DNA of 64,000 bases, from positions 70,707-134,706 of the forward strand of contig JAOMTZ010000002.1 of the NCBI GenBank assembly GCA_028356125.1, read 5' to 3'. The DNA comes from Candidatus Poseidoniaceae archaeon. GTDB lineage: Archaea > Thermoplasmatota > Poseidoniia > Poseidoniales > Poseidoniaceae. Made by a program: the position numbers and the translations under genes. Each line of letters opens with the position of its first letter. Positions within the stretch are counted from its first letter, which is position 1. This document shows, in pieces, positions 6,174-54,600 of this stretch. The notes under the pieces were generated by a model. It saw only the letters and a list, made by a program, of their open reading frames with translations, was not told the origin of the DNA and made no database searches.

Positions 6174-6182
6174 TTGAAAGCC

Positions 6183-9100
6183 TCAAATCTTGCGTACCCA
6201 TTGCCTAGTAGTCGGGTCACGCATGTACCAAGCACCACTGGACGCAGGGAATTCTAGCCACTCATTTCCATCAGACCTCATTGTACCAACATCGTAGAAT
6301 GTTGGACCTAGTGGAGCCTGCTGTGGCATTACCGCTTGACCTGGCAATGCTGCTAGATTAGGAGAAGCCGCTGCTTGTTGCGCGACTACAGGGTGTACTG
6401 GTTGGACTGGTTGTTGATACTGAGAGTATGCTGGCTGCTGTGGAGCAACAGCTTGTGCATACAGCCCGCTATTTGCTGGCATTGCTGACATATCAGGCAT
6501 AGCAGGTTGTGCATTCATATCTGGCATCATTGGAGCATTATTCCAATCCTTCTCACCTTCATCTGAATCCATTCTTCTCATTATTAGCAATCCCGCCATA
6601 ATAATTACAAGTAGAACTCCGACTCCAATTCCCCCGTAAGCTAGGATGCTACCACCTGATGATTCTTCGACCTTTGCTTCGCAACCGTCCTCTTTCGCAA
6701 CACCGGCTATTTCTGGGCAAAGGTCAGGATTCTTACCTTTCGGATTATCTCCAAAACCATCTCCATCTGTGTCGTTCCACTGCGAAGAATCTTCAGGGAA
6801 CTTGTCAATCAAATCTGCCCAACCATCATTATCAGTGTCTACACATCCAAGGACTCCACCTTTGTATGAGAACCCTGCAGTTTCGATACAATTGTCCGCA
6901 GATGTTCCTTGTGGGTTATCGCCATATTGGTCACCATCAATATTGGACCATTGAGTTGGGTCTGTAGGATTCCAGTCAGTACCATCAATCGGGTCACCAT
7001 AACCATCCATATCGAAATCAGGACAGCCAAGAACATCGATTGTGGAGTACCCTTCTACTTCTGGACAGTTATCATAACCATCTGCTATTCCATCACCATC
7101 TGTATCTTCGTATTCGTTAGCATCTGCTGGGAATGCATCCATGAAGTTAGCCCAACCATCACCATCGCCATCGGGACAACCTAAGATGTCATCTTGCCAA
7201 GAATTGCCTGCTAAAGTGGGACATGCGTCTTGGTCTCTGGAATATTGATAATACTCTCCAGGCCAATTTGTATTACGGTCAGACCATGATAAATTACCAT
7301 AGTTGTCACCAAATCCATCTTCATCCCAATCCGACCATTGTGTTTCATCAGTAGGGAATGCATCAGCACCATCTCCTATTGACCAAGAAGAATCTTCAGA
7401 CGAATAACCATCATTATCTGGGTCTGGGCATCCATACCGATCTAGAACTGATGTACCAGATGTGTCGATACAAGCGTCCGGAGTATTTCCATCCTGATTA
7501 TCACCGTATCCGTCTCCGTCGACATCACTCCATTGTGTATTGTCATTAGGAAGATCATCGTCGATGTTGGCCCAACCATCACCATCAGTGTCTGGACACG
7601 CTAGTGTCCCACCAAGTGATGAATTCCCAAAAGAGTCAGGGCAGCTATCTTCAATATTAGCCCAACCGTCTCCATCTGAATCTTCACATCCTTGATATGC
7701 GCCTAGACTTGAGGTTCCTGCGACTTTATTGCAATCATCTGCTGCATCATCATAACCATCACCATCGTCATCCAGATCTTCATCTGCATCTCTGCAGCCA
7801 TCGCTATCAATGTCATTGGAAGAATCGGAAGACCACCAATTGCGAGGAGGAGAGTAAGAACTCAAACAGTCATCATTTGAATCCTCAATACCATCATTGT
7901 CATCATCATTATCTTCGCTAGAGTCTTTACATCCATCATTATCGAAATCAGTTGTAGAATCACTAGTCCAATTCCAAGCGCCGCCTCTTGGGCAATCATC
8001 ACCTGAGTTATCTGTGATTCCATCATTATCATCATCATAATCGCATTCGTCACCATTTCCATCAAGGTCGCTATCTATTTGCAAAGGATTGTTCGTATTT
8101 GGACAATTATCTGTTAAGTCATTTACACCGTCGTTATCGCTGTCTGCATTGTTGGTTGGATCAAGAGTCCAAATAACAAGGTCGAGACCCCAGGTACTAG
8201 TTACAGACTGAGTTCCTTTGTTGATAGTTGATTGGAAGGAACCGAAAGCCGCAGGTACATCGGTGTAATTGACTGCCAAACCTGCAAACAAGTCGTCACT
8301 AGTACTTCCTAAGTTTTCCACCCAATCCCAGTTTCCTGAACTATCTAATTGAGCCATGTATAGGTCTAATCCACCATTAGTATTGGCGACATGTATTCCG
8401 AAATCTGTTGGACCAGAAATCATTCCACCTGCGATAAAATCTCCAGATGAGGTCTCAGCAATCGAGTAAACTCTCTGAGTACCTGTGCTACTACCAGCAC
8501 TTGTGGCCCAAGAACTAGTACCGGTTTTGAGAATCTTGACGACGTAAGCATCTCCCTGGCCTTTATCGGTTAGAGTATTTTGATTACCGGCATCTAATGA
8601 ACCTAAGAAGACTCCAGATACAACTACATCATCATTCTGAGTTACAATCAAATCCTCTGGAAGATTAACTTCACCCGCCCCACTTGCTAAGCCAATTACG
8701 TCTTGTACAACTCCTCCCGGGCTCCATTTGATGACTAATGTGTCTGTATTGCTAACCGCTTGATGAGATTTACCATTAGATGAGAATGTACCATCAGTAG
8801 TACCTGCTTGCCAAATATTCCCTGAAGAGTCTACGGCTACTTCTCCTCCATTCTCAGCACCAATACCTCCGGCAGTAGAAACCCAGTTTAGACTACCAGT
8901 CATCCGATCAAACTCAGCTACAAAGAGTTCAGAATCAGTATTGTTTTTGCTAATACCTCCGAAATCTGTGACCCCTTTCTGAGTACCGGATACGACCAAA
9001 TCTCCCGAAACTGTTTCCTGTAAACCTTCGACACTACTACTGTTTGGACTTGTGCTATTTTCGACATAAGGTGAAGTGAACATTACCGCCCACAACCACT

Positions 9101-9611
9101 GCCCGTTGAATGCATCCACTTTAGCTATGAATCCGTCACCATACTGGTTTTGACTACGTAATACTGTCGAACCAAAAGATACCTCGCCTACAATCACGCC
9201 TCCAATGTAAACATCGCCCATAACCGATGTTGTCAAACATGTCAACACGGTCAATCCTAAAGATGCATCAGGCATTACTGCCCAGTTCCAGTTGCCCTGG
9301 TTATCTAAAGATGCGACATAAGAGTCTGCATCCAATTGAGTATTGTAGGGGGATGTCGATTGTACTTGGTTAGAACCGAAGGTCATAGTGTGCCTAGTAT
9401 TGCCGGCTACGATCCAACCATCAGGTGTAGCCCCGATTTGTGTGCCATTAACATGACCAAAAGTCGAGCCTGCTTGAACCAAAAATTCAGGTTCAGAATC
9501 AGCATATGATACTGAAACAACATCTGTTAGTTCGATATCATTGGACACGGGAATAATACTCGCAAGAAGGATAGAGATTATTGCAAGACTCAATACCGCA
9601 CGATAGCGCAT
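6183..9611 (-). CDS. Large exported surface protein: SBBP-type beta-propeller repeats, thrombospondin type-3 Ca-binding repeats, TM anchor and Pro/Gln-rich cytoplasmic tail
   Basis: There is an N-terminal signal/anchor ([18 protein letters not shown]). SBBP-like repeats are present (e.g. [22 protein letters not shown]). There are more than 15 DxDxDGxxDxxDxCP repeats. A TM helix ([18 protein letters not shown]) is followed by a P/Q/M-rich tail. Confidence 0.8.
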
Positions 9612-25107: not shown

Positions 25108-25908
25108 TTGGGATACGCTATGCGCAAATCACGGGTTTCCGTCCGAATTTTCCTCCCCCTAATCCTAGTGCTGGTTATGCTTTTACCCGGATTGGTAAAT
25201 GCCTACCCTGAAGGCATTGGCGGCGAGCAACAAAACGGCTCAGAGACGATTGACGACGTGGCTAAAGAAGGCTGTCTTTGTCACGGTGAAGAACCTAGCA
25301 ATTCTGTTATGATCCTCCTAGTCGGAGTCCCACATACCTGGTCACCAGAACAAACCTACAACATGAGATTGGAAATTGTCGGAGGCCCTGCGACCGACAT
25401 GGGCGGATTCTCCGCAAGAGTTAGTGCAGGAGAGTTTTCGGGAGATGGACAGGCATGGGAAGAAGACCCAATGACAAGAACTCATGTTTCATCATCTTCC
25501 AGAATATTCGAAATCACTTGGACATCCCCAAGTGCCGGCGCTGAACACATTGATTTCTGGATTAGTGGCAACGCTGTAAACGGAGCAGATGGCCCCGCTG
25601 GAGATTACTGGAACCAACTTGTATTCAATTTGGTCGAGGTTGCAGAAGATGACGGCAGAGGAACTCGCACATTAATTGCAGGCAGTGGAACTCCTGAAGC
25701 CCCTGAAGCTGAATCCGGAGAAATTGACCTTCACACCATGGGTGCACAATTCAGAGCCCACTGGCTCGGACTTCTTGGATTTGGAGCAGTAATTGCAGTT
25801 ATTATATTCTGTGGGCTATTACTACGCTATGGATTCTCTACATCATACAAGGGCAGAAGTAACCTACTGCGCCTAAGGTACAAAGTCAACAGAAGAGGTG
25901 ATCAATGA
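25108..25908 (+). CDS. Exported protein with C-terminal TM anchor, first gene of the Rieske/cyt b operon
   Basis: A signal-like N-terminus (IFLPLILVLVMLLPGLVNA) is followed by a soluble domain of about 190 aa containing GCLCHG. A C-terminal helix (LLGFGAVIAVIIFCGLLL) is followed by a basic tail. Possible starts are TTG 25108 or ATG 25120. There is a weak resemblance to Reeler-type beta-sandwich domains, from memory only. Confidence 0.6.
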   Translation: MGYAMRKSRVSVRIFLPLILVLVMLLPGLVNAYPEGIGGEQQNGSETIDDVAKEGCLCHGEEPSNSVMILLVGVPHTWSPEQTYNMRLEIVGGPATDMGGFSARVSAGEFSGDGQAWEEDPMTRTHVSSSSRIFEITWTSPSAGAEHIDFWISGNAVNGADGPAGDYWNQLVFNLVEVAEDDGRGTRTLIAGSGTPEAPEAESGEIDLHTMGAQFRAHWLGLLGFGAVIAVIIFCGLLLRYGFSTSYKGRSNLLRLRYKVNRRGDQ

Positions 25909-26360
25909 TGGCTAAAGACACAATAACCCAACTTCTAGAGAAGGTCGCCTCAGGCAAGGTCAGCGTCAAAGATGCAAGGACTGCCCTAGAGGATGCTAGT
26001 CTAACTGAAGAGCAAATGGATAATGCGATTAATCACGGAGTGTTTAATCCTGCAGAACCCGGAACTGTCATCTCAGCAGCATTAGCGCCATCTGGTAAAT
26101 CCGCTCTCACAATGTTCTTCTTTGGATGGGGAATATTTTGGGCACTATTTTGGTTTGGAACAATGTTGTACGGGCTCCTCAACGGCTCAGCATGGGACCA
26201 ACAACAATTGTCTTACCACCTTGCAATGGGTCTATCCACCCTAATCATGATGGGGATAGTCTACCTAAAGTGGGTACTTCCAGATACAATTATTGTCAAG
26301 CACAGTCAGAATAAGTTCATCCCTGAGCATCAGAAGGACTGGAGAGAATACAACTGGTGA
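25905..26360 (+). CDS. Small 2-3 TM membrane protein, operon member
   Basis: 151 aa. The soluble N-terminal 60 aa are followed by hydrophobic helices. It overlaps both neighbouring genes by 4 nt. Confidence 0.55.
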   Translation: MMAKDTITQLLEKVASGKVSVKDARTALEDASLTEEQMDNAINHGVFNPAEPGTVISAALAPSGKSALTMFFFGWGIFWALFWFGTMLYGLLNGSAWDQQQLSYHLAMGLSTLIMMGIVYLKWVLPDTIIVKHSQNKFIPEHQKDWREYNW

Positions 26361-27214
26361 TTCCTATGGACGACATGAAACTCAGACCTGCACCATCCAC
26401 TGCTGGAGACTTGTTGTCTCTTACAGGTGACATGATTGTCAATAGAAGACAATTCATGAGATACGGATTCAACGCTACAAGTGGTGTATTAGCTTCCACA
26501 TTAGGAGCGCTAGGGTTCGCTGCCATCCTTCTACCCCCTTCCGGAGGAGGAGGAGGAGATACTTCGGTTCTCTATTGGGCAAAGGGTCGTGAGGATGAGG
26601 CATGGTATGGTGCAAAGCACTTGCAACCGATGTCAAAATCTGATTTCGAAGCAGAAGCTGCAAAGTCCAGCGTAGGCATGTCTGGCGCCCAGGGTGTTTG
26701 GAATGGACTACCGGTGATCGTCAACTACGTACCTCACTCCGTCAATTCAATCAAACCGATGGCCGACAATTCACCTAGATTCCAAGAGATGCCAGGATAT
26801 GACATCGGTGGAAACTATGTTGCTCACGCAACAGAATACCTACTAGGAAACCCAGAGATATTTGATCCAAATGGCAATCTAATCATGATATTCTCAAGAT
26901 GTACGCACTTGTGTTGTATACCTGGATGGCAATTAGTATCAAATTCGTTTACAGACGATAACTGGACGCCAGGCGGAGGAGACGACGGTGGAAGTAAGAT
27001 GTTCTGCATCTGCCATTCAAGTAGGTTCGATCCAACTGCTATCGAAGTAAACCGTAACGCTAACCGTTCAACTGGTGCTTCATTCGAATATCTCGGCATC
27101 CGCCGTGCAGGTGGACCTGCACCAGTCGGATTACCAATTATACCAATCATAATGAATGGCGATACAATTGAGGCGTCTTCTGATTACACGGGCTGGTTGA
27201 CCTACTGCGACTGA
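26357..27214 (+). CDS. Rieske [2Fe-2S] protein with twin-arginine signal
   Basis: The Tat motif is NRRQFMRYG followed by a hydrophobic helix. Rieske box I is CTHLCC (res 182-187) and box II is CICHSS (res 217-222). Confidence 0.85.
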   Translation: MIPMDDMKLRPAPSTAGDLLSLTGDMIVNRRQFMRYGFNATSGVLASTLGALGFAAILLPPSGGGGGDTSVLYWAKGREDEAWYGAKHLQPMSKSDFEAEAAKSSVGMSGAQGVWNGLPVIVNYVPHSVNSIKPMADNSPRFQEMPGYDIGGNYVAHATEYLLGNPEIFDPNGNLIMIFSRCTHLCCIPGWQLVSNSFTDDNWTPGGGDDGGSKMFCICHSSRFDPTAIEVNRNANRSTGASFEYLGIRRAGGPAPVGLPIIPIIMNGDTIEASSDYTGWLTYCD

Positions 27215-27223
27215 GGTGAAAAT

Positions 27224-28090
27224 ATGAGCACAATATTCTGGGTACTTTGGTTCTTTATTGCATTCATCATTGTTCTTATTGCGTTTACTCTACGCAAAGA
27301 GAATGAGGACATCCCACGCCGTGAAATTCTACGTGCAGTAGAATCAAGCGGGAAAATGGGATTCGCTGAGAGAACTTTCCTATGGGTATTCTCGTTCCTA
27401 GACACTAGGTTCAGAATTCAAGATTATTGGAATATGAGCAAAGGTGCGTACTACAATATGCATCGCCAAATGCCTCTTACTCACGCTGAAAAATACAAAT
27501 TGCGAATCATTTGGTATTGGTACCCATTGTATTGCTTAGGAGGAATTTCTTTCCTTTCTTTCATTATTCTAGTCATAACAGGTACAGTCCTAGGTATCTA
27601 TTATGTCCCAGGTGGAGAAGGAGACCCATCTCCTGCTTATGCAAGTATGCAGTTTATCATGACACAGTTGCCATTTGGTTACATCATTCGTGCTGTCCAT
27701 CATTGGGGAACTCACTTCATGGTTGCATCAGTATTCCTCCATATGTGTAGAGTATACTTTACTGGAGCTTACCGCAACCCTCGTGAACTAAACTGGTTAA
27801 TCGGAGTGGCACTCATGGCATTAACAATCGTCTTCGGATATTCAGGTTACTTGCTACCATGGGATAGCTTGGCCTATGGTGCGGCTGTAATTGGTATCAA
27901 TCTCGCTAACTCAACACCGCTCATAGGTAAATTAGTGGCCACCCTATTGTTCGGAGGATCATCATTATCACATCAGACAGTAACTCGAATGTATTTCATT
28001 CACGTGTTTATACTGCCAGTGATTGTAACCACATTGATCATTATACATTTGTTCATTGTTTGGGTTCAAGGAATTGCGGAGCCGCACTGA
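27224..28090 (+). CDS. Cytochrome b, N-terminal (b6-type) half
   Basis: AVHHWGTHFMVASVFLHMCRVYFTGAYRNPRELNWLIGV...GYSGYLLPWD is present. The helix-D histidines FIHVF...IIIHLF have 14 intervening residues (b6/Firmicute type). Confidence 0.9.
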   Translation: MSTIFWVLWFFIAFIIVLIAFTLRKENEDIPRREILRAVESSGKMGFAERTFLWVFSFLDTRFRIQDYWNMSKGAYYNMHRQMPLTHAEKYKLRIIWYWYPLYCLGGISFLSFIILVITGTVLGIYYVPGGEGDPSPAYASMQFIMTQLPFGYIIRAVHHWGTHFMVASVFLHMCRVYFTGAYRNPRELNWLIGVALMALTIVFGYSGYLLPWDSLAYGAAVIGINLANSTPLIGKLVATLLFGGSSLSHQTVTRMYFIHVFILPVIVTTLIIIHLFIVWVQGIAEPH

Positions 28091-28107
28091 TATTGGAGGT
28101 TTGAATT

Positions 28108-30924
28108 ATGGGACTTATTGAGAATCTTGGCGCTGTTGCTTCATCCTACATGGATGAAAAAGAGAAATTGGAATCTGCTGATGAAAGGCGTAAGCGTACT
28201 CGTGCGGGCCATGGGTTTTGGCCTCATGAAGCACTACGTGACACATTGATCTTCGGATTCATGGCTTGCGTACTGCTATTTTATGCATGGTTAATTCCAC
28301 CTCCGCTACACAGTGCTGCTGATCCATTCGCCCAGGCAGGTTTCGTATTCCCTGACTGGTACGTACTATTCTCATATGGATACTTACGCTGGGGAGAATA
28401 CCTTCCTCAGTTCGATGTACCCCTTGGACCAGTTGGAGATTTCTTCGGACAGCCAACTTTCCCTTGGAACGCTGCATGGTGGGGTGCTTTCCTAACTGGA
28501 ATCCCAGTAGGAATCCTTGCACTACCTCCTTTCCTAGGCGGCCGAGAGAAGAGACCTGTTGAAGACCCGTGGTTTGCTAGTGCTGGTGCAGTATATCTTG
28601 CCCACATTTGGTTCATCTCAGTATTCTCCATCAACATCTTCTTGGAACTTTACGGTAAAAACAGAAGTGATTACTGTAAATTGGACGGTAATGGTGACCT
28701 AGTTTGTGGCACTAGAGACCCATGGGTTGCTGATCTGTTCAATATGATACCCTGGGTTTTGACAGGCATCCTGTTATGGATTGTGATTTATTTCGTTGCT
28801 AAGTGGCTATTCAATAACGCGTGGGGAGCAAGATTCACCCCCGCTCATGGAAAGAAGTTGATAGTTGGTGCATTCATTGTAGCAACTGCTGCAAGTGTAG
28901 TTTCATACCCAGTTTATGACAATGGTTTCTGGGACGCTAAGGGATTACTCACGATTTCAGATTATGAGGAATTAGAGGAAATGCGTTCTCAACCAAATGA
29001 TGTTCAAGTAACCGAGAGAAATGAATTCATGGATACACAAGGCTTCGAAGGAGATATTGTTCCAGCCTCAGCTTGGATGGATTGGATTATTTACCAACCT
29101 GCGAGATATTACATGATCGATTTCGCCGATAACAACGGACATCAGGATCTGGAATCTGGAGTCAACGGTGCTACAGGAATAGATAATTACACTGCAGATG
29201 AATACATCTGGGCTACTGGGTCGTTCCAAATTACAGATGGTACATCGATGAACTACTGGCCTGATGACAGTGACTTTACCACGGTTCCTGTTGACGCAAC
29301 TTGTTCTACAAGGGCTAGTGAAGTAATTATCGACGATGGAGATTCAACCTCTAAGATGATTCAATCAAGTCTAATTGTCTCAGAACATGACTCTGGTGAT
29401 GTAATCATAGAAACTGACTGTAACACTGGAGAATTGGGTATCGAACTTCCTGCGGGAACTTATGACTATGAATTCAAGGTAGAATCTACTGATGGTCTCC
29501 TCAACAATGACAGCGTTATTGTAGAGACTACATTCGCTATCAAAGCATACCAGCCACTCCTATTGTACGGAGAGAGTGCAGGCAATGGACTTGCAGGACG
29601 TACTGTAGATCTTTCTAACTCAACTGCACTTGAACTCGAAGGAGATTATGCAGGAGTTGTAGAAAACCCAACCTACCACGTTAACCCTAAATCGTTGGAT
29701 GCAAAGTTGACCTATGCAATGTTCATTCCATGTTTGGCTGCTGGTGCAGGCGTATTTGTTGTCCTCCGAAATATGGCTAGAGGATATGAGTTTGAGATGA
29801 ACAAGTGTTACGGGTGTGACCTTTGTGACGATGCTTGCCCGGTTAGATTATTCAATGCTGGTGACAAGTTGAACATCATTTACAATTCATGGAACAATGA
29901 AGACGATGGAGTCCCGATGTACTCGTGTCTCACCTGTACAGCATGTACTAATGCCTGTCCTCAACTAGTAGACTACGACTCATATGTTGACATACGTCGA
30001 ACACTGATTGTAGGAGGGCCTGCTGCAGAGATTCCTCACACTGTTTTACAGGCTGTTCTAGCTGCTGAAGCAGAAGAAGACAGTGATGCAGACTTCGTGG
30101 CTGTTGAAGATTACCCAATAGACTCCAATGTAGGATATTACCCTGGATGTGTAGATTACCTTGACCAGGAGATGGTATTTAGCCACCTAAACGAAGGTGA
30201 CATGAACCTAGGGGACACCACAACTGCTGCTTTCACTCTGTTTGAAGAGATGGGAACAGAAGTGTCATACCTCGGACGTGATTTCTTGAAGTGCTGTGGT
30301 CACGACCAAAAGTGGCAGGGACTTGACGAAGTGTTTGACAAACTGAAGTCTTACAATCAAAAGAAGATTGAAGCATCCGGCATCGATACTCTTGTTTCTT
30401 CCTGTGCAGAGTGTTTCAGAACATTCGCTCGTGACTACGAATTAGAAGGGATCAAGGTTATGCATACAACCGAGTATCTTATCGAAAACGGATTCGATAT
30501 GGAAATGAAGGTTGAAGATGAACTAACTGTAACTTACCATGACCCATGTAGACTAGGTCGACAAATGGGAATTTATGATGAACCTAGAGAGCTAGTTGCG
30601 GGAGTCGAAGGTGTTCAACTTGTAGAGATGGAGCACCATGGTGAAGATGCAATGTGCTGTGGAGTTTCAAGTATGATGTCATGTAATGAGAATGCACGTG
30701 CCCTAAGAGTTTCCAGAATGGAAGAGATTAGAAACACAGGTGCTGACATGATGATTACTTCCTGTCCAAAGTGTGTATCTCACTTCGAGTGTCTGAAATT
30801 CGAAGGTGATGAAAGACACGATATCGAAATCCTCGATGTTGTATCCTTCCTTGCTCGTCAAGTCGATGCAAAGAAATCACTTGCTGAAGAATCCACCGTA
30901 ACACCAGTTACTGCTGAAGCGTAA
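28108..30924 (+). CDS. Fusion: cytochrome b C-terminal/subunit-IV-like membrane domain + extracytoplasmic domain + 2x[4Fe-4S] ferredoxin-like + 2x CCG cysteine-rich domains (HdrD/GlpC-like)
   Basis: The FPDWYVLFSYGYLRW (PEWY) motif and 5 TM helices occupy res 35-270. A hydrophilic domain spans res 271-533, followed by TM6. The Fe-S motifs are CYGCDLCDDACP and CLTCTACTNACP. Two CCG repeats are present (LKCCGHD...SCAEC; DPCRLG...MCCGVS...SCPKC). Confidence 0.85.
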   Translation: MGLIENLGAVASSYMDEKEKLESADERRKRTRAGHGFWPHEALRDTLIFGFMACVLLFYAWLIPPPLHSAADPFAQAGFVFPDWYVLFSYGYLRWGEYLPQFDVPLGPVGDFFGQPTFPWNAAWWGAFLTGIPVGILALPPFLGGREKRPVEDPWFASAGAVYLAHIWFISVFSINIFLELYGKNRSDYCKLDGNGDLVCGTRDPWVADLFNMIPWVLTGILLWIVIYFVAKWLFNNAWGARFTPAHGKKLIVGAFIVATAASVVSYPVYDNGFWDAKGLLTISDYEELEEMRSQPNDVQVTERNEFMDTQGFEGDIVPASAWMDWIIYQPARYYMIDFADNNGHQDLESGVNGATGIDNYTADEYIWATGSFQITDGTSMNYWPDDSDFTTVPVDATCSTRASEVIIDDGDSTSKMIQSSLIVSEHDSGDVIIETDCNTGELGIELPAGTYDYEFKVESTDGLLNNDSVIVETTFAIKAYQPLLLYGESAGNGLAGRTVDLSNSTALELEGDYAGVVENPTYHVNPKSLDAKLTYAMFIPCLAAGAGVFVVLRNMARGYEFEMNKCYGCDLCDDACPVRLFNAGDKLNIIYNSWNNEDDGVPMYSCLTCTACTNACPQLVDYDSYVDIRRTLIVGGPAAEIPHTVLQAVLAAEAEEDSDADFVAVEDYPIDSNVGYYPGCVDYLDQEMVFSHLNEGDMNLGDTTTAAFTLFEEMGTEVSYLGRDFLKCCGHDQKWQGLDEVFDKLKSYNQKKIEASGIDTLVSSCAECFRTFARDYELEGIKVMHTTEYLIENGFDMEMKVEDELTVTYHDPCRLGRQMGIYDEPRELVAGVEGVQLVEMEHHGEDAMCCGVSSMMSCNENARALRVSRMEEIRNTGADMMITSCPKCVSHFECLKFEGDERHDIEILDVVSFLARQVDAKKSLAEESTVTPVTAEA

Positions 30925-32078: not shown

Positions 32079-32411
32079 TCACCTGTCAATCATTGTAATC
32101 GCGTCTGTTGGACATGCTAACACACAGAGCCTACACCCAGTGCAAGCATCACGTATAATCTTGGCTTTGCGATTACTAGGAACCTCTAGTAAAGGTGAAG
32201 CCATGTCTTTGAAGTAAAGTTCAATCGCATCATCATCACAAACGATTGTACATTGGTCGCATCCGATGCAGAGGTTTTCAGTGACCCAAGCCACTGTTCC
32301 TTCACCTCCTTTGATCATTGCCCTTTTCTCACCCTTCTGCCTAGCCAGAGAGATAGCAATTCGTTCAGCCTCCGCTGCACGACGCTTGGCTAAGTCCTCA
32401 GAGGAAGTCAT
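32079..32411 (-). CDS. 2x[4Fe-4S] ferredoxin with a charged N-terminal extension
   Basis: CIGCDQCTIVCDDDAI and CTGCRLCVLACPTDAI are present. It overlaps the upstream membrane-protein gene by 4 nt. Confidence 0.8.
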   Translation of the reverse strand: MTSSEDLAKRRAAEAERIAISLARQKGEKRAMIKGGEGTVAWVTENLCIGCDQCTIVCDDDAIELYFKDMASPLLEVPSNRKAKIIRDACTGCRLCVLACPTDAITMIDR

Positions 32412-33066: not shown

Positions 33067-34050
33067 TTATTGTAATTCAATGGATACGCCTTCAGAACGC
33101 ATTACTTCGATTATTGATTCAATGACGGCATTAGAAAGTCTCTCTGGTGCATGAACTCCAGAACCAAGCATATCCGGCTGCTTTATCCATTCCAAAGCAC
33201 AGCATGCTGTAACCAAACCTGTAGTGCGAGCCATACTAGAGTCTCCACTCATGCCACTATCTTCAATTATCCATCTCTTTTCATTATTACCAGATATGAT
33301 ATGGATTTCCATCCAAGTAAATTCTTCTTTTGATGGATCCATCTTCCACGCATCTACTAATTCTTCAGGATTCAAATTAGATTGCTGATATTTCTGAATA
33401 TGACCTGGCCAGCGAACTGTGTATTCCCCCATACTCTTTGCAGGAGTATCGAGAAGAGAACGCAGACCATCAGTTAGGAAAGCCTCCATTGCCCTTCCAT
33501 TGGCATCTATAGCATGAAGTTCAGTCATAGCAGGAACTTCCGATACCTTGCCATTCGCAATAATCCTAGCTGGGCGTGTATATTCTGCGATTACATCATG
33601 GGGCGAAAATGGGGCCATATACGACCAACCAGAATCGGGGGTACTAGGATTGCCACCCACCTTGATGGTAACAGAATCCAGTTCTCCATATTCACGAACT
33701 GCCATTGATACGAGCATATTAGAGAGTCCCGGGGCGATTCCAACATCCCACAATATTGAACTGGTAACATTTTCTAAATTGTCAGGAGTATATTCGCTGA
33801 ATGATAGGTCGACAATCCTCTGCCCTGTTCCTTTCAGAAGTTCTGTTGCTTTGTTACCAAGCGAACCTGGCAACATATTGATGATCAAGTCTGCACTACT
33901 ATGGTCGGCAATTAATGCATTTCCAAGATGGAATGTAGCATCGGTATTTCTTTCAATAATGTCGAAAAGATGAACATCGAGACCTGATTTAACCAATCTG
34001 CGAGTCACAAACAAACCGACTAATCCACCACCCAAACAATGAATTTTCAT
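33067..34050 (-). CDS. Saccharopine dehydrogenase-like NAD(P)-dependent oxidoreductase
   Basis: The N-terminal Rossmann motif is KIHCLGGGLVGLFVTRRL. Also present are GIAPGLSNML, VGGNPSTPD...WSYMAPFSP, YTVRWPGH and ARTTGLVTACCAL...GVHAPE, as in the Sacchrp_dh N/C domains. Confidence 0.65.
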   Translation of the reverse strand: MKIHCLGGGLVGLFVTRRLVKSGLDVHLFDIIERNTDATFHLGNALIADHSSADLIINMLPGSLGNKATELLKGTGQRIVDLSFSEYTPDNLENVTSSILWDVGIAPGLSNMLVSMAVREYGELDSVTIKVGGNPSTPDSGWSYMAPFSPHDVIAEYTRPARIIANGKVSEVPAMTELHAIDANGRAMEAFLTDGLRSLLDTPAKSMGEYTVRWPGHIQKYQQSNLNPEELVDAWKMDPSKEEFTWMEIHIISGNNEKRWIIEDSGMSGDSSMARTTGLVTACCALEWIKQPDMLGSGVHAPERLSNAVIESIIEVMRSEGVSIELQ

Positions 34051-35258
34051 TCTGCTCTCACCATCTGTTTGAGTGATTCAGCACCCATTGCAAGCATTGA
34101 CAATTCTGCAATCAAGGCGTGCCAGCCATGCGCATGCTCGCCATATGCAGTTCCAACCTCACTGTAGGGGTGGAACTTTGCAGAAGGGGAATTGAGGTTT
34201 TCCATTTCGCCTTTCTTTGGATTTATTCTGTAAAACCATGAAGCCGCTTCACCATCCACAAGATATACAACCGGTTCGACAGGAGCCCCATCAGAAGTTT
34301 TGATGTTCGTTGGGACGCCTTCTTGAATCAAGAAGTTCTCGACATCGACTCCTCCTTTAGAATACATTAATCTCTTGAATTTACGATTTGAAAGTGTGAG
34401 TAATTCATCTCCACTGCTCACAGCCATAATTCCCAAACCGTAGGTTCCACTATCGTTTTTGATGAATGCTACTGGTTCTCTATCAATACCTAGTGATTCG
34501 TATCTTGCAGTGATTCTAGCTAGGAACTCATCGACTTCAGATGCCAGAATTTTTCGGCATGTTTCTTTCTCTAAGCATTTACCCTCACTGACAAACCAAT
34601 CTGCCAAAAGATGCCATGAATCGATGTTCAAAATTTCTGCAATCTCATCAACATACTCTTGCAGGCAAGCATAGTGTTCAGATTTCCTGCGCCTTTGCCA
34701 ACCCATATGCGGAGGAGGTGAGACTTGATGTGCGCCCAGACCATCGACCATCCCCTCTGTCAAATCATTGTTTAGCATTATCAAATCAGGTTTCTTCCCA
34801 TCGATTAGAAGAGATTCATCTTCGACTACAACCATGTCCAAGAGCAGTGGTCCTGTGATACCATCAAGTGATCCGTGACCCTCTAATTCAGGAGAGCCAA
34901 CCGTACATCTAAATCCACCATTCTCAATCAATCTCTTGATGGTGGCGACATTTTCGATATATCCTTGATTTCGAGTATGTGATTCGGGATAAAGGTGAAC
35001 CCATTTACATTCTGGATTTTGCCGCAGGATGTGATCTTTGAGTAAAGAGGATAACCTTTCGACATCTTCAATAGATATATTATTGAAACCTGCAGGAAAG
35101 TGATTCGCATCGACAACTGCGACTTTCCAACCACTGTCTCGGATGTCAACACTTCCATAAATCGGAATTGGTACTTCTGAACGTTTCTTAGACATCCATT
35201 TCGTAATCAATTCACGGTTCTCTTCTAAGTGTGCTGATAAATCATGAACTGTAGACAT
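34047..35258 (-). CDS. GshA-type (PF08886-like) glutamate-cysteine ligase family protein
   Basis: The N-terminal block PIYGSVDIRDSGWKVAVVDANHFPAGFNNI matches my recollection of the compact bacterial GshA family ([26 protein letters not shown]). Substrates cannot be read from the sequence. Confidence 0.55.
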   Translation of the reverse strand: MSTVHDLSAHLEENRELITKWMSKKRSEVPIPIYGSVDIRDSGWKVAVVDANHFPAGFNNISIEDVERLSSLLKDHILRQNPECKWVHLYPESHTRNQGYIENVATIKRLIENGGFRCTVGSPELEGHGSLDGITGPLLLDMVVVEDESLLIDGKKPDLIMLNNDLTEGMVDGLGAHQVSPPPHMGWQRRRKSEHYACLQEYVDEIAEILNIDSWHLLADWFVSEGKCLEKETCRKILASEVDEFLARITARYESLGIDREPVAFIKNDSGTYGLGIMAVSSGDELLTLSNRKFKRLMYSKGGVDVENFLIQEGVPTNIKTSDGAPVEPVVYLVDGEAASWFYRINPKKGEMENLNSPSAKFHPYSEVGTAYGEHAHGWHALIAELSMLAMGAESLKQMVRAE

Positions 35259-48667: not shown

Positions 48668-51600
48668 TCATCGGTTTGGAATCTCGCCTAACTGCCCAAT
48701 CTCACCGACTACTCTTGTCAGTGCTTCTTGTGCATTTATCTTGTGACTCTCACCCATTTCGTGTCGGCTATATCTTGCCTCTTCGAATACATTGTCCAGT
48801 AGTGATAGTGACTCCTCCGTGATATTTGGAAGAGCCGCACGAATCGCCATTTCGAATTCTCTAACAGTTTCGAAATCACGTCGTAGGAATCCTCTTCCCA
48901 TCAAGATGTGAACCAGGCTCTCATAGCATTGGAAGATTGCTTCACGCATTGAATCTCCAGCCGCCAGTAACTCGGCAGTGTAGGAGAATATGTCTGCTAT
49001 TTCTTTTGCAGCCTCTGTTGCACGGCGCCTCATGATAACGAATGCAGCACCTGCCCCAATAATCAGCATTGCAATCACATAAACCCACCATGGAGCACCG
49101 CTACTATCACTCTCATAGGTGTAGTCCGGATTAATTCCTGAGCTGTAAATTGTATTGAATTCACTCATTGAACCATCTGAAATTACAAAGTTAGGAGATA
49201 TCTGAATCTTTAGAGTCAACTCTCCATATTCGGAAACATCCCCATATGGCGGATCGGAATTAAACTCAAACGAAGCAATACCATCCGAATCAGTGACAAT
49301 AACGACTTCATCTAATCGAGTATTGTTTTCTGATTCAAGATAAACAGTGATTGCAATTCCTTCAACACCCTCATCAGTGTCATCTGCGATGAGTTCTATC
49401 TCACCAGAAACAACTTCTTGTTCACCCTCAATAATATCATCAATATCAACACTGATTGGAGACTTGAGGTTGATCCTAACTGAAACAGGTTCCGTCCAAG
49501 AGTTTCCAGAGCGTAGGTACAATGTGGAGTTTTCAGGTGTCAGAAGATTAAATTGCATCTGACCTGGTTCAATCCATGATGGAGCAGTAGCACTCAGAGT
49601 GAATGTGCCACCATTCCAGATAATACTGTCTGTAGTGATACAACGGCTCTCAACACCGCTGGTTCCACAATTTATTCCTTCACCTAATACCAGTGATGCA
49701 CCGTCGATAAGAACACCTTGGCCACCGATTTCAGTAACTCTTCCAGTAATCTGAATCTTGTATGTAGTACTGTCACTTCTAACAACATCATATGGCTGTA
49801 TGGAATCTATATTGACATTGACATCTGCCCAAACCAAAACCGTCTCGTTAGAATCAATTGGCAGATGGCCTGTACTTCCATCGAAAGCAAACCGCATCAC
49901 GTGAGTACCACGAGAGTAATCTGAGTCTGCACGAATAGATGTAGAGAAATCACCAGTCAAAGTAGTTGTAGCGAAACCAACCTGAACTCCATCCAAGAAG
50001 ATGAAGATTGTTTCTCCTGGCAACCCCTCGTTCAGGGCTGTATCAATATCATACAGTGAACCAGATATTTCCCAGAAGTCATCCCTAGTTGCATCTTTGT
50101 CAACAAAGTCTACTGTAATTCCTGTACGGTGCGATAAGAAGAATGTTGTATTTGCTTGCCCCGAACGATACCATCCCTGAGCAGGAACATCTGCAACAAC
50201 TGTATGTACGCCGTCCGACAAGAAGTTTGGAACAACCCAGTTGAAACTGAAGTTACCGTTAGAATCTGTTGTTGCATTACCAATTGGAATGCCTTCAACT
50301 GTCACCTGAACAAGCATGTCAGATAATGGATTCATTTGATTGTCGCCTACGAAACCGTCAATCGTTGTTAACTGGTCCACAGCTAGAGGAGACTCGATAT
50401 TCACCTGAACTACGATCTTCGAATAGATATTCCACGTGCCATCATTGGTTGATGGCAGATACTGCGTAGTACCGATGAATCTTGTTTCAAGAACTACAGG
50501 TCCAAGTTCTGCATCTGCAGGTACTGGATGGACTGCATTGAATGAACCATCAGCAGTTGTTGTAACATTGGTCAGGAAAACTCCGCCAAGCCAGATTTCT
50601 ATTGTTTCACCCTCTAGAGGGTTGTCAACAATATCTAGAAGTCTTCCTTGAACTGTCAAAGTATCTTCTCTGTCTACTTGTCCACCAGTAGTCAGTAGTA
50701 GTATCTTAGTAGGCACTGCAACTGTGAAATTCACAGATGAGGAACTCGGCTTGTAGAAGTCAGGGTTAGCACTGTCTCCTTCGCCAATCGGATTGACCCA
50801 ATCTCTTCCGCCTGTGAAACTAATCTGAATATTATGCTGACCAGCCTCGATACTTTCAGGAGAGGTCCATGCGAACATATACTTGCCATCTGAAGCATTG
50901 GATTGAACGCTCGAAACAGGAACTCCATCTATCAGAAGATAGACTACTGCTATTGAATCAACTCCATCAATCTGTAAAGGAGAGCCTAAATCATCTAGCA
51001 ATGTTCCGTTAACATACAGAACATCACCAGCAGTGATTCCAGACGAACTTTCATCGATAGTGATCTCAGTATTCGCTAGTACGATGAATATGACATCTGT
51101 TGTGTCCCCAATTAGTCCAGTAGTACCCGCAGTTCCAACGAACTCAGCTTCCAAATCATGGAAACCAACAGACAATGTTGTAGGGACGGTTAGATTAACA
51201 TCAACAATTCCTGATGCATCAGTTGTTCCAGTAATGGTAACTGGAGTCCCATTAAGTGAAACTGTTACTTGAACTCCAACGACTGGAGCCCCTGTGTTAT
51301 CGAACAATTGTAGTCTAGCATTGACATCATCACCACGATCAGTACGGTCGTTAAGTGATGGTTGGTCCACCCCATCTAATGATGGTGATACGAATGTCAG
51401 AGTAGTAAACCCTCTACTGTCGAAGGATTGATTCGCACTTGAACCAGAGTAATAATTCACAGATGGGATATACTGAGCTTCAGCAATGTGAGTTCCTGCA
51501 CTGAATGAGGAACCAAGCATAATACTACCAGACCAAGTGCCATTTGCCAAAATTTGTACATTGGATTGAGTGAAGCCTGTTGCCTGGTCATCGATTGTAA

Positions 51601-54600
51601 ACAACACGCTAGCCGTTAATGGAGCCCCATTCCTCAATTGAAGAGCACTGCCATTATCACTAGCGATTGAACCACTGATTGTGAACGATTCACCTGCAAC
51701 AGGATTTGCCACTATAGCATCAACTACCATAATCGTGGTAGAACGGATTGTAATCGTGGATAGATTTGTTTGAGTAGACAATAGATCAGTAGTTCCGTTG
51801 TACATCATCGAAATCGTAATCATGCCCAATGGCTGATCAAATGGTATTGTGTAAGAGAAATTAGCTCTGCCTTGAGCATCTGTAATGTTAGATGCTAGCC
51901 AAGTTGCATCAAAAATGGCACCGATACTGAACCCTTCTAGAGGTTGGAACATGTTAGATGATTCAACCATCTGTAAAGACATGTTCACAGTTTCACCACG
52001 GTTCACGATCATTGGATTCAAAGGTTGAACATTCTCGAATAGAGTAACCCCTTGAACTAGAATCGAATGATTACTAGAATCTGTTAGATAGAACGGAGAT
52101 GAATCTTCAACTACTGAGATTATGAATGTTCTTGGCCCTCTCAATGTACCATTACTTAGAACATCTGTAGGGACAGATAGGTTGAAACTTCCATTCACTG
52201 AAGTGAATACGCCGTTGACCAATTTCTCATCTGGATTGTCCAACCAGAACATTTCTAATGCGACTGCCGAAGTAAGGTTTCTGCTAGCATTATCACCATC
52301 CTCAACTTGGCCTACAACTTGGAAATTAAATCCTGCAGTAACTGTTGAAGGGATTGAATCGACTCTCAGATTCGATTGGACCTGCACTGTTACGTTGATG
52401 TCTGTAAAGTTACCTCTGTGCCTAGTTGCACCGCTTGTCTTAGCAGACAAGAGGTCATCTACAACTTCCATTCTTAGGACATAACGACCAGGATTAACAC
52501 CAGATACAGTCCAAGAAAATGTTGCATTTCCTTCCGCATCTGTAAGGGCATTTCCGATTGAAATATTAGCGCCGCCATAATCAATAATGTAATCCACTTG
52601 TGCGCCTGAAACATTTGAGCCATCAGCAACATCAGTAACTCTGATGTTGAAATCCACGTTTGTGCTCATGACAGCAATTACATCCCGCGAACCATCTTCT
52701 GGTGGAGACAATACAACATCCGACTCTATTCCCCAAGTCGTTGAAGGCATTTGCGGCAATGCAGGAGGTACGGCTGTTGGCACCCATTCAAAGTATGCGC
52801 CGCCCTCTTGAGAAACTGATGCGAAATCAGACATTATCTCTACATCATACACTCCTGATGGGAAGTTGTTAGGAGCTGCAATAGAGATATTGTAACTACC
52901 TGTGCTGTTGTTCAACATACCCTGACCGATTTCCACAGTTCCAAATGGAGTTATCAATTGTGCAATTACTAAAGAATCATTGGCTAGAATTGCACCACCA
53001 TGAACAGCATCAGTAAAGTCACCTACAATCCAAGTAGTGTTACCAAGATAGGTCCAATCATCAATAATTGAAACTGTGATATCAACAGTACCCATAATTC
53101 TCAATAGCGAATTATTGGTTGATGCCATGAAGTATTCATTTCCTCCAAAAGAGATGTCGAATACATAATCTCCTGCAAAGAGATTAGCGTCTGTTGAGAA
53201 CGTTGGAGAGATAGTGCTAGATTCCGGATCAATGGTGGTATTCACCGTTGAACCATTGAAATCAAAGGTGAAAGTTCCAGTCAGGTTTAGTTCAAATGAG
53301 CCTCCTAAATGGTCTGTAACCACTACAATAAGCCCAACATCTGTCCCTCTAATTTGCGGTAATGCCTGCAGTTCGAGGAATAATATTCCTTGTAGGAACC
53401 ATTCGGTTCCAGATGTGTTTAACGAATCTGTAGCTTCAAGACTGTCAGGATAGAATATTAGTTCAAGTTCAACATCTCCAGCTTTAACAGTAGTATTGTT
53501 GTAATCAAGGAAATGACTAATCGAGAAAGCACCGTTTACTGATTTATTGAATAATTCAACAAAGGTTCCTCCACCATTCAGTTCTCGCATTCCGAATGAA
53601 AGATTCCCGGAAAGGGCCGATGGTGTTGCACCAAAGGACTGTGCGGTACCGTTGATGTAAACCAGTTGATCGATTTGCATTATGGAATTATCTACACCTG
53701 GTCCTTCGATAACCGCCGTCAAATTCGGGGCATCTCGGATATCCATGGTAATTGAGTGAGTTGTTGGGCGCAAGTGGAATTGAGGACCACCTATTGCTTG
53801 CGAATTATCTTGCCAACCACTGAAACCGAGTGTCGCTGAAATATTTGTCTTAACTTCCAATTCATCCAGTGAGACATTGATTGACCAAACTCCATCTGGT
53901 CCTACTGTTCCTGAGAGATTGGTTGCTCCGTCTTCAGAAGATATGAAATCTAACCAGACGCTCAAATCACCAAGAACATCTGCACCTAATGTTTCATTAC
54001 TCAAAAATAGTAAATCTCCGGTCAACACAGTGGTAGCCCCTGCTCCAAGGATAGGACTATCCACTGGCCCAGGTTCACTGTGAGTCAAGTTGGAATCGTC
54101 AGTCATGTTAATGAAAACGCCCAAATCAATACCATCGTTAGAGACATAGCCACTTTGTATATGTTCAATGACTATACTAGCATAACCAGGTTGTACAGGA
54201 GTTACTAACGAACCATTGATGCTGAAATTACCATTGGAGTCCGTTTCAATGGAACCGAAAAGGTTGCCAGGAACTGCAGCACTTCCTGGGACATTATTTA
54301 CATCTCCCGAATTTACTACGAAACCACGGATTGTGATATCCGGTATTGCAGTTGTATTCTCAGTGTATTGTAAAGTTCCAGTAACAACAACCTCTGCTGA
54401 ACCTCCGCGGTCATAATTTGTTGGAGACCATGTAAGGTTGACTATTTCGATAGCCTCGGGCTCAGGACAAGCATCAAAGGGTATCCAACCTAGGTCGTCG
54501 CCACCGCTTCCAGCACTCATCTCAAGACGCACTTCGCCCCATTGAGCCAGATCACCGCCATATATTTCGTAACCATTTCCGGTCCACGAACCATCACGAT

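Follow-up and report, generated by a model that had tools for sequence, protein, structure and literature searches.

Why does a marine archaeon carry a heterodisulfide-reductase-like iron-sulfur module on the end of a cytochrome b6f-type subunit? The question is raised by one open reading frame (ORF; nucleotides 28108 to 30924) in a stretch of 64,000 nucleotides, here called the window, from a Candidatus Poseidoniaceae archaeon of Marine Group II (GenBank assembly GCA_028356125.1, contig JAOMTZ010000002.1, positions 70,707 to 134,706 of the forward strand). Its product begins as subunit IV, the carboxyl-terminal half of a split cytochrome b, and ends as an HdrD-like module: a domain for two [4Fe-4S] clusters (the dicluster domain) followed by two CCG domains. 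On sequence grounds, the protein serves as subunit IV in an archaeal b6-type Rieske/cytochrome b complex, and it bears an HdrD/EtfD-type electron wire. That it is a genuine subunit of this kind is a conclusion we hold with high confidence.

Both halves come from well-known superfamilies. What is new is the placing of an HdrD/EtfD-type module on a Rieske/cytochrome b complex, and its attachment through fusion to subunit IV. An initial annotation of this DNA had remarked that the parts were known only as separate proteins. For the literature that remark stands: no paper describing the fusion was found in the searchable literature, including the main Rieske/cytochrome b phylogeny papers (subscription-only literature lay outside the search). 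As a peculiarity of the window it does not stand, because the architecture belongs to a family that spans the Poseidoniales and has shorter forms in other archaea. Indeed, the fusion protein is already in databases, under the generic names "Fe-S oxidoreductase" and "heterodisulfide reductase-related".

Integrity and spread of the fused frame

The frame is single and uninterrupted, as first annotated. In the base composition of the window, 938 stop-free codons have a chance probability of about 5e-24. When 5.8 billion proteins were searched, more than 120 homologues of full length (908-942 aa, 60-96% identity) came to light from independent ENA, JGI, NCBI, and Tara assemblies; their named hosts are Candidatus Poseidoniaceae, Poseidoniales, or Thermoplasmatota. 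In a scan of one genome per GTDB species, relatives proved to be encoded in 447 genomes. Among the best 80 of these 447, over which all counts of locus conservation given below were taken, the match to the fusion protein is near-complete in every case save one, which ends at a contig edge. Their labels are Poseidoniales (MGIIa or MGIIb) or the broader Thermoplasmatota, Methanobacteriota, or Euryarchaeota, with one exception. (The exception, locus L048 on NZEQ01000055.1, encodes a full-length fusion of 71% identity and was deposited as "Verrucomicrobiales bacterium isolate ARS100"; the contig probably is a Poseidoniales sequence in the wrong bin.) The window itself is 99% identical to locus L023 and 96% identical to a long-read metagenome-assembled genome (MAG) of MGIIa, which places its source in Marine Group IIa.

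Could an assembly join, or a sequencing frameshift, have fused a petD-like gene with an hdrD-like gene? Split versions do exist in the databases, but these fragments lie on error-prone or short contigs and end in frameshift tails, and support for such an artefact is otherwise nil. More than 120 protein clusters, built from independent assemblies, show the same unbroken architecture, as do distant relatives of 33-39% identity, and a relative is encoded in 447 species genomes. A fusion kept across independent genomes excludes a join error, and we give the artefact virtually no chance. Fragments of 150-480 aa on long contigs were also considered as natural unfused versions; these were ruled out by the frameshift tails and truncations visible in the alignment.

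The subunit-IV module

The amino-terminal module shows the layout of subunit IV: residues R44-D45, helix E (46-64), the ef loop, helix F (122-144), helix G (161-179), and a fourth, helix-H-like segment (213-231). The ef loop contains PDWY, a variant of the PEWY motif, at residues 82-85 (nucleotides 28351-28362). P82, D83, and W84 are invariant, and Y85 nearly so, in 43 family members; all of the members inspected carry PDWY. Across Marine Group II, residues 46-179 show a mean identity of 84%.

Formal recognition of this homology required the wider family. A direct Pfam scan of residues 1-273 found no match to PF00032 (Cytochrom_B_C) at E<=10, and a direct phmmer search of solved structures reached b6f subunit IV at E=0.025. 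A profile made from 17 full-length Marine Group II proteins brought no improvement (subunit IV at E 0.085), because these sequences are too alike; likewise, a word-indexed homologue search with the amino terminus alone returned Marine Group II fragments and nothing else. When 1.84 billion representatives were searched exhaustively by HMMER with an amino-terminal profile, on the other hand, 114 relatives emerged. The remoter of these (E 1e-13 to 1e-24) have shorter chains, in which PF00032 scores above its cut-off and is followed by Fer4 and two CCG domains. Of the helices of the window protein, they match only the first three and the helix-H-like fourth. A mixed profile, combining Marine Group II with short-form amino termini, then found, among solved structures, the carboxyl-terminal halves of bacterial and mitochondrial cytochromes b at E 6e-15 and b6f subunit IV at E 4e-12, with alignments in register across helix E, PDWY, helix F, and helix G. 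Thus the homology reaches significance only through a profile that includes the shorter relatives.

In the mixed-profile alignment, R44-D45 (invariant in Marine Group II) stands opposite the K-D that closes "...PFWPYFVIKD" in bacterial cytochrome b. We take this pair to be the equivalent of the Qi-site residues K251/D252 of Rhodobacter sphaeroides cytochrome b; if that equivalence holds, a working Qi (quinone reduction) site is likely.

These profile matches, the PF00032 domains of the relatives, and the b6 gene immediately upstream together sustain the assignment to subunit IV. The initial annotation had placed subunit IV, with five transmembrane helices, at residues 35-270, directly after a b6-type amino-terminal half at 27224-28090. 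The adjacency was right: the upstream product matches PF00033, and the fusion gene begins 17 nt past its end. The homology and the Qo-site motif were also right, whereas the fifth helix belongs to an insertion specific to Marine Group II. The profile searches it suggested likewise gave a divided answer: the CCG and Fer4 dicluster domains were matched directly, but Cytochrom_B_C was missed, and subunit IV came within reach of the mixed family profile alone. Structural modeling adds nothing at this end of the protein. AlphaFold2 with a shallow Marine Group II alignment gave a mean confidence score (predicted local distance difference test, pLDDT) of 49 and an unusable amino terminus, and a 43-sequence alignment raised the mean to 68.6; the top 50 matches of a Foldseek search with the AlphaFold model include neither a subunit-IV nor a cytochrome b chain. 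Structural-model evidence is therefore confined to the CCG module and to a beta-sandwich described below.

The iron-sulfur module

The initial annotation placed two CxxCxxCxxxCP motifs and two CCG repeats in the carboxyl-terminal part, and every one of their cysteines was located, with Pfam in agreement. The dicluster motifs comprise C567/570/573/577-P578 and C607/610/613/617-P618. Each CCG motif follows the complete five-cysteine pattern, CXnCCGXmCXXC: C681, C729-C730, and C766xxC769 in the first; C814, C850-C851, and C886xxC889 in the second. An alignment of 43 family members, of 33-85% identity, shows no change in any of the eight dicluster cysteines or in nine of the ten CCG cysteines, and hardly any in C730. 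Within Marine Group II the dicluster domain averages 94% identity and the CCG domains 84%.

Among solved structures, the closest relative is EtfD of Mycobacterium smegmatis (9ojn; phmmer 2e-23 over residues 603-931; Foldseek 8e-14). The next fold matches are LutA (TM-score 0.76) and HdrB (about 0.6). NCBIfam matches are partial and sub-threshold: the carboxyl-terminal half of TfrB at 3e-33 (115 bits against a cut-off of 385), then LdhH, GlpC, TmcB, DsrK, and GlcF; NCBIfam returned no HdrD match for the window protein. By these profile scores, the module lies outside all six named families. Ligand details separate it from its closest solved relative as well. EtfD has C-T in the first CCG motif, which holds a linear 3Fe-4S cluster, whereas the window protein has C-C-G in both motifs; at the position of the EtfD ligand His583 it has Glu768. 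The ligand set thus is of the Hdr type. In the AlphaFold model the dicluster region has pLDDT below 50; AlphaFold2 leaves out Fe-S clusters, a possible cause of this low score.

Membrane topology and a variable surface domain

Six hydrophobic helices are evident (residues 46-64, 122-144, 161-179, 213-231, 251-269, and 534-552). Subunit IV of b6f and bc1 complexes has its amino terminus in the cytoplasm (the n side) and its PEWY loop outside. From that start, helix E runs outward, F inward, G outward, the fourth helix inward, the fifth outward, and the sixth inward. Residues 180-212, with the invariant C190 and C200, fall outside by this count. The loop at 232-250 falls inside and contains four K/R and no D/E; residues 270-533 fall outside and are hydrophilic and acidic (50 D/E versus 11 K/R). 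The orientation of subunit IV by homology, the helix count, and the charge bias all support a cytoplasmic location for the Fe-S/CCG module and an outside location for residues 270-533. Hydropathy and charge thus agree with the side that had been assigned to the module. The further description of residues 271-533 as a hydrophilic outside domain of unrecognised family, followed by a sixth transmembrane helix at 534-552, was also borne out by hydropathy and by the Pfam search: residues 271-557 match no Pfam family at E<=10.

In the short forms the Fe-S module follows directly after the fourth helix. The fifth helix, the outside domain, and the sixth helix therefore constitute an insertion specific to Marine Group II. 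Its mean identity across the group is 41%, compared with 84-94% for the redox modules, a disparity which indicates that the redox parts are under strong purifying selection. The insertion is variable in length too, with spacings of 450-907 residues between PDWY and the Fe-S module. (Four Poseidoniales fusions, P0320, P0330, and P0340 at 1334-1349 aa and P0104 at 1062 aa, have an outside insert longer by up to about 400 residues.) Judged from these alignments, the surface domain grows and shrinks and the redox modules stay fixed.

AlphaFold models about residues 340-510 as all-beta, with pLDDT 80-94. The fold matches are weak and generic for a beta-sandwich: the GOLD domain and the carboxyl-terminal domain of Clostridium perfringens enterotoxin (CPE), at E of about 2e-3. 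Conserved residues comprise one invariant His and the invariant C399 and C438, which probably form a disulfide. A role for this domain as a redox replacement of cytochrome f or c1 was considered and rejected, given the absence of a redox motif and the generic character of the fold resemblance.

A graded family

Surveying archaeal genomes for the same domain order returned full forms in Poseidoniales and shorter fusions in other archaea. Four grades can be laid out: plain subunit IV (239-280 aa); subunit IV with the 2x[4Fe-4S] dicluster (336-458 aa); subunit IV with the dicluster and two CCG domains (543-789 aa); and the Marine Group II form with the outside insert (908-1349 aa). Such a gradation is suggestive of a cytoplasmic electron-transfer arm that grew step by step. 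The named hosts of the shorter relatives are Thermoplasmata MAGs and Ca. Geothermarchaeales, along with a Halobacteria MAG that has a dicluster-only form of 336 aa; several other short-form contigs were judged archaeal from their neighbors (A-type ATP synthase, DUF7xxx families).

The operon core is shared by these relatives. A DUF7318 protein (wherever upstream sequence exists), a Rieske protein, a b6 protein (usually with the CxGG motif), and the fusion follow one another; in locus L081 a 77-aa protein with the WDQ motif takes the DUF7318 place. An acceptor on the outer (p) side is supplied by the first gene or by an amino-terminal fusion to b6, and is a monohaem or pentahaem cytochrome c or a cupredoxin. 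(In L087, at 6406-7968, and L084, at 5304-7931, b6 is fused at its amino terminus to outside cupredoxin (PF00127) or Big-type domains.) The cupredoxin fusion means that in this family the p-side acceptor, too, can be covalently attached.

What follows the fusion gene is more telling for function. In five of the six CCG-bearing fusion clusters, the next genes encode HdrC-, HdrB-, and HdrA-like proteins, a Fer4-FlpD (MvhD) protein and/or FrhB; the sixth contig stops at the fusion. Such recurrent partners, of the kind found in flavin-based electron bifurcation, give the best indirect evidence that the fused module serves as a functioning port for electrons on the cytoplasmic side. They also strengthen the idea, put forward in the initial annotation, of a cytoplasmic redox couple.

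The Marine Group II gene cluster

The fusion gene is the last of five co-oriented genes (25108-30924): orfA, orfB, Rieske, cytochrome b6, and fusion, with overlaps of 4 nt or gaps of 9-17 nt. The five are kept in 70-80 of the 80 loci. Their coordinates and domain assignments, and those of the other features discussed, are collected in Table 1.

The b6 gene, present in all 80 loci, has its best solved matches in cyanobacterial and chloroplast b6 chains (E 4e-45). It retains the four haem-ligand histidines, in pairs spaced 13 and 14 residues apart. C104 (nucleotides 27533-27535), within "YCLGG", aligns to Cys35 of the solved b6 chains and is invariant in 62 Marine Group II homologues; the CxGG motif so formed is the signature of haem cn (PMC5600118). 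The product therefore is predicted to be of the haem ci/cn type, with haem attachment at this cysteine. (About 100 extra amino-terminal residues, encoded by nucleotides 27224-27520, include one more hydrophobic helix, at residues 5-22, and are kept across Marine Group II.) The Rieske gene (75 of 80 loci) matches TIGR01416 at E 2e-8, below the family cut-off.

The first two genes are less familiar. The orfA product (70 of 80 loci) contains "GCLCH", a C-x-C-H sequence rather than the CXXCH motif for haem c, and this is invariant in 70 homologues. Its carboxyl-terminal anchor, "RAHWLGLLG", can be aligned (E 6e-4) with that of the c-type cytochrome encoded by the first gene of the related cluster L089, and a weak second alignment sets GCLCHGE on the CKTCHGE of that cytochrome; orfA matches none of the solved-structure sequences at E<=10. 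It is a candidate for the electron acceptor on the p side, and may replace cytochrome c1 or f by means of an unusual cofactor site. The orfB product (72 of 80 loci) matches no Pfam family, and shares the "WDQ" motif and a basic carboxyl-terminal motif with the DUF7318 proteins of L083, L084, L087, and L089. From its recurrence, DUF7318 looks like a dedicated small subunit of such Rieske/cytochrome b complexes. In the Marine Group II cluster, flavin and NAD(P) domains are absent, as are CXXCH proteins.

Two genes downstream of the fusion, both on the opposite strand, bear on its possible partners. A small ferredoxin gene is kept in 66 of the 80 loci; its matches to solved structures are generic and polyferredoxin-like, and it could be a redox partner or a case of mere conserved synteny. 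A glutamate-cysteine ligase gene of the GshA type is a hint of gamma-glutamylcysteine-type thiol synthesis in Marine Group II, and such a thiol would be relevant to a disulfide-reductase reading of the fusion. (A SAP/zinc-ribbon protein, also encoded downstream, is not conserved.)

Relation to known complexes

Four known systems invite comparison. With b6f and the haem ci/cn-bearing Rieske complexes of the Firmicute type, the Marine Group II complex shares a split cytochrome b, a CxGG-bearing b6, a subunit IV with a PEWY-type motif, and a Rieske protein dependent on twin-arginine translocation. In contrast to b6f, however, the window subunit IV continues into a fourth helix and the cytoplasmic 2x[4Fe-4S] and 2xCCG domains, to which Marine Group II adds two helices and the outside domain; cytochrome f/c1 is missing, with orfA at its operon position; and the DUF7318-like small subunit is extra. 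In the published account, Marine Group II genomes encode cytochrome b and Rieske proteins, with no canonical bc1 complex, and proteins listed as "MGII specific (complex III)" (PMC6336850).

The likeness to HdrD lies in the order of parts, two CxxCxxCxxxCP motifs and then two five-cysteine CCG motifs, and in the cytoplasmic location on a membrane b-type cytochrome system. But in HdrDE, DsrMK, and QmoC the partner is a NarI/HdrE-type dihaem cytochrome, which the window cluster lacks; here the module is fused, and the partner is subunit IV of a Rieske/cytochrome b complex. As aerobic heterotrophs, Marine Group II are assumed to lack the methanogenesis cofactors coenzyme M and coenzyme B, whose heterodisulfide (CoM-S-S-CoB) is the substrate of HdrDE.

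EtfD (Rv0338c and its M. smegmatis counterpart, 9ojn) and EMO likewise combine a membrane domain, a dicluster, and a CCG wire in one polypeptide, in hosts that live on beta-oxidation. EtfD conducts electrons from the electron-transfer flavoprotein (ETF) to menaquinone by way of non-cubane clusters, cubane clusters, and haem b (PMC13083937), and the non-cubane clusters of EMO are relays, not catalysts (bioRxiv 10.64898/2026.08.18.745454). Their membrane domain, however, is amino-terminal, NarI-like, and haem b-binding, whereas that of the window protein belongs to another family; furthermore, the C-T/His583 pattern is missing and the window holds no etfAB among its ORFs of at least 150 aa.

Finally, the closest concept comes from anammox bacteria (Kuenenia), in which a b6-like cytochrome b and a subunit-IV-like protein are likewise joined by an extra n-side redox module. 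There the module is a separate cytoplasmic subunit of flavin/NAD(P) oxidoreductase type, in a bacterial complex with multihaem cytochromes c; here it is fused and HdrD-like, and the Marine Group II cluster has none of the anammox-type parts that would make the resemblance more than functional and conceptual. The anammox module has been proposed to take up the low-potential electron that bifurcation at the quinol oxidation (Qo) site provides (PMC12954380).

Possible routes of electron flow

The complex would still run the Q cycle, since PDWY, the Rieske protein, the four haem histidines, the haem ci cysteine, and the R-D pair are all conserved. The fused Fe-S chain would then be an extra n-side branch, connecting a cytoplasmic redox partner with haem bH, haem ci, and the Qi pocket. 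Electronic coupling of the chain to the n-side haems or to Qi is probable. Which way electrons would pass is a harder matter. Inward flow, our favored explanation, has a reduced cytoplasmic carrier feeding electrons to quinone at Qi, much as EtfD/EMO and GlpC-type proteins do on other anchors; the carrier could be ETF (from beta-oxidation), ferredoxin (from 2-oxoacid oxidoreductases), or a thiol. A ferredoxin route via haem ci has been proposed in chloroplast b6f, and the inward model resembles it. By our own bookkeeping, one-electron injection at Qi would match, in H+/e- yield, a separate dehydrogenase combined with a bc complex. The inward direction is favored because Marine Group II are aerobic and oxidise fatty acids and peptides, and because the ferredoxin gene adjoins. 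Fatty-acid degradation is encoded in all Marine Group II genera, and part of it is highly transcribed (PMC6461757; bioRxiv 10.1101/2020.09.16.299958). Even so, electron input at Qi is a tentative choice, ahead of the other readings yet short of being probable in itself, and for Marine Group II in particular the inward direction deserves the same caution, if not slightly more.

Several points weigh against it. The window ORFs of at least 150 aa include no etfAB, acyl-CoA dehydrogenase, 2-oxoacid:ferredoxin oxidoreductase, HdrA, HdrB, HdrC, or FlpD. The full five-cysteine, Hdr-like CCG motifs and Glu768 are no less compatible with catalysis at a disulfide than with a simple relay function. Most characterised membrane complexes that pair a cytochrome b with an HdrD-like protein (HdrDE, DsrMK, Qmo) run from quinol to the cytoplasm, which is the opposite direction. 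An inward route, moreover, would need no Rieske/cytochrome b complex, given that a NarI-type anchor suffices in EtfD. Fusion to Q-cycle machinery, together with the HdrA/FlpD partners of the relatives, points rather to use of Qo bifurcation.

That bifurcation is the heart of the main rival, in which the chain runs outward. Quinol would be oxidised at Qo; one electron would pass to the Rieske protein and an oxidase, the other through haems bL, bH, and ci into the fused Fe-S chain, where the non-cubane clusters would reduce a cytoplasmic disulfide (for example that of a low-molecular-weight thiol) instead of, or besides, quinone at Qi. In the relatives, the electrons would feed HdrA/FlpD modules and so yield reduced ferredoxin or F420H2. 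Much is in keeping with such a reductase: both CCG motifs are complete and Hdr-like rather than EtfD-like; genes for HdrC-, HdrB-, and HdrA-like proteins, FlpD, and FrhB come after the fusion in the shorter relatives; fusion to Q-cycle machinery is a specific need of a bifurcating mode; the GshA gene, 3 kb downstream, makes a gamma-glutamylcysteine-type thiol plausible; and HdrDE-type enzymes move electrons from the quinol pool to a cytoplasmic disulfide. A precedent has been proposed in the anammox Rieske/cytochrome b complexes (PMC12954380). However, Marine Group II live as aerobic heterotrophs whose reductant is in surplus (PMC6336850), and it is not obvious why they would need a quinol-driven low-potential reduction; in this group no HdrA or FlpD partner is encoded in cis, and the Qi-type residues apparently are kept. 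Exposed Hdr-type clusters would be expected to be oxygen-sensitive. We consider the outward reading unlikely, albeit the most serious competitor; the specific claim that the complex is a quinol-driven electron-bifurcating reductase, whose high-potential branch pushes the second electron into the fused Hdr-type clusters, is a shade more doubtful still.

Two further readings dispense with the coupling. Subunit IV might be a mere tether for a self-contained dehydrogenase part like GlpC, LutA, GlcF, or SdhE, which would pass its electrons to free quinone. SdhE and GlpC do work without a haem anchor, LutA is the close fold match noted above, and NCBIfam gives partial matches to TfrB, LdhH, and GlpC. 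Against this, the module is invariably fused to subunit IV of a Rieske/cytochrome b cluster, even in deeply divergent lineages; the dicluster-only intermediates resemble a wire to the membrane core, not an enzyme; and the Marine Group II cluster contains no flavoprotein dehydrogenase gene. Anchoring alone is thus an improbable explanation. A module without electron throughput, serving as a redox sensor or as an element of assembly or stability, or surviving as a relic, is more improbable again: the lack of an identified partner or substrate and the low dicluster pLDDT (which the omission of clusters by AlphaFold2 may explain) could be read that way, but ligand cysteines that are conserved in domains of 84-94% identity within Marine Group II, and kept across phyla, argue for a working redox chain. 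Inward electron input at Qi remains the explanation we prefer.

Other features of the window

In the remainder of the window, methylmalonyl-CoA pathway genes (MeaB GTPase, B12-binding mutase subunit, carboxyltransferase) lie at 37797-40709 and a glutamate dehydrogenase gene at 43067-44428; both fit amino-acid and odd-chain fatty-acid catabolism. A stand-alone cytochrome b561-type membrane protein (PF01292, E 9e-16), a further b-type cytochrome of the membrane, is encoded at 42436-43047 on the reverse strand. Also on the reverse strand, at 48668-57577, is an ORF of 2969 aa with a transglutaminase core and Ig-like and MG2/alpha-2-macroglobulin-like domains. Two other long ORFs, of 970 aa (57680-60592) and 1142 aa (6183-9611), match no Pfam family.

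Table 1. Coordinates of the fusion gene, its domains, its neighbors in the window, and DUF7318 genes of related loci (loci named where not the window)
Feature	Position (nt)	Strand	Description
orfA	25108..25908	+	Signal peptide, outside choice-of-anchor V domain, carboxyl-terminal transmembrane anchor; NCBIfam NF041895, E 2.5e-23
orfB	25905..26360	+	Small membrane protein, DUF7318-like; overlaps orfA and Rieske gene by 4 nt each
Rieske [2Fe-2S] protein	26357..27214	+	Tat signal, RRQF at residues 30-33; CTHLCC at 182; CICH at 217
Cytochrome b6	27224..28090	+	b6-type, four-helix cytochrome b; PF00033, E 8e-43
Fusion ORF	28108..30924	+	ATG at 28108, stop at 30924; 938 aa; no internal stop
Subunit-IV / cytochrome b carboxyl-terminal-like module	28108..28800	+	Residues 1-231; hydropathy, family profile against solved structures
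Marine Group II-specific insertion	28858..29763	+	Fifth helix 251-269, outside acidic beta-sandwich 270-533, sixth helix 534-552; missing from relatives of 543-789 aa
2x[4Fe-4S] dicluster domain	29794..29964	+	Residues 563-619; Pfam Fer4_8, Fer4_9, Fer4_10
Two CCG domains	30133..30786	+	About residues 676-772 and 808-893; Pfam CCG twice, E 1.1e-24
Small 2x[4Fe-4S] ferredoxin	32079..32411	-	110 aa; Pfam Fer4 families
Glutamate-cysteine ligase, GshA type	34047..35258	-	PF08886, E 1e-99; 3 kb downstream of fusion
DUF7318 protein before Rieske gene, L083	123-575		
DUF7318 protein before Rieske gene, L084	4312-4677		
DUF7318 protein before Rieske gene, L087	5133-5630		
DUF7318 protein before Rieske gene, L089	4942-5352		

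Implications

The graded series and its HdrA/FlpD neighbors bear on how Hdr-type modules have been recruited to different membrane anchors. The fusion also provides a test case of fixed stoichiometry for two debated matters: the role of haem ci and the entry or exit of n-side electrons in b6-type complexes (the debated ferredoxin route in cyclic electron flow); and the capacity of Qo bifurcation to drive chemistry beyond quinone reduction, as proposed in anammox bacteria. Were the outward, bifurcating mode to prove true, Marine Group II would provide a second example, archaeal and abundant in the ocean, of a mechanism so far only proposed in anammox bacteria, and haem ci would be the gate to n-side electron exit.

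Marine Group II, the commonest planktonic archaea of the surface ocean, rank with its most abundant heterotrophs, and their "complex III" so far has only been noted as non-canonical (PMC6336850). If the fusion couples the Q cycle to a cytoplasmic carrier, their respiratory chain would depart from the textbook, and models of carbon, peptide, and lipid oxidation by these archaea would need a new entry or exit point.

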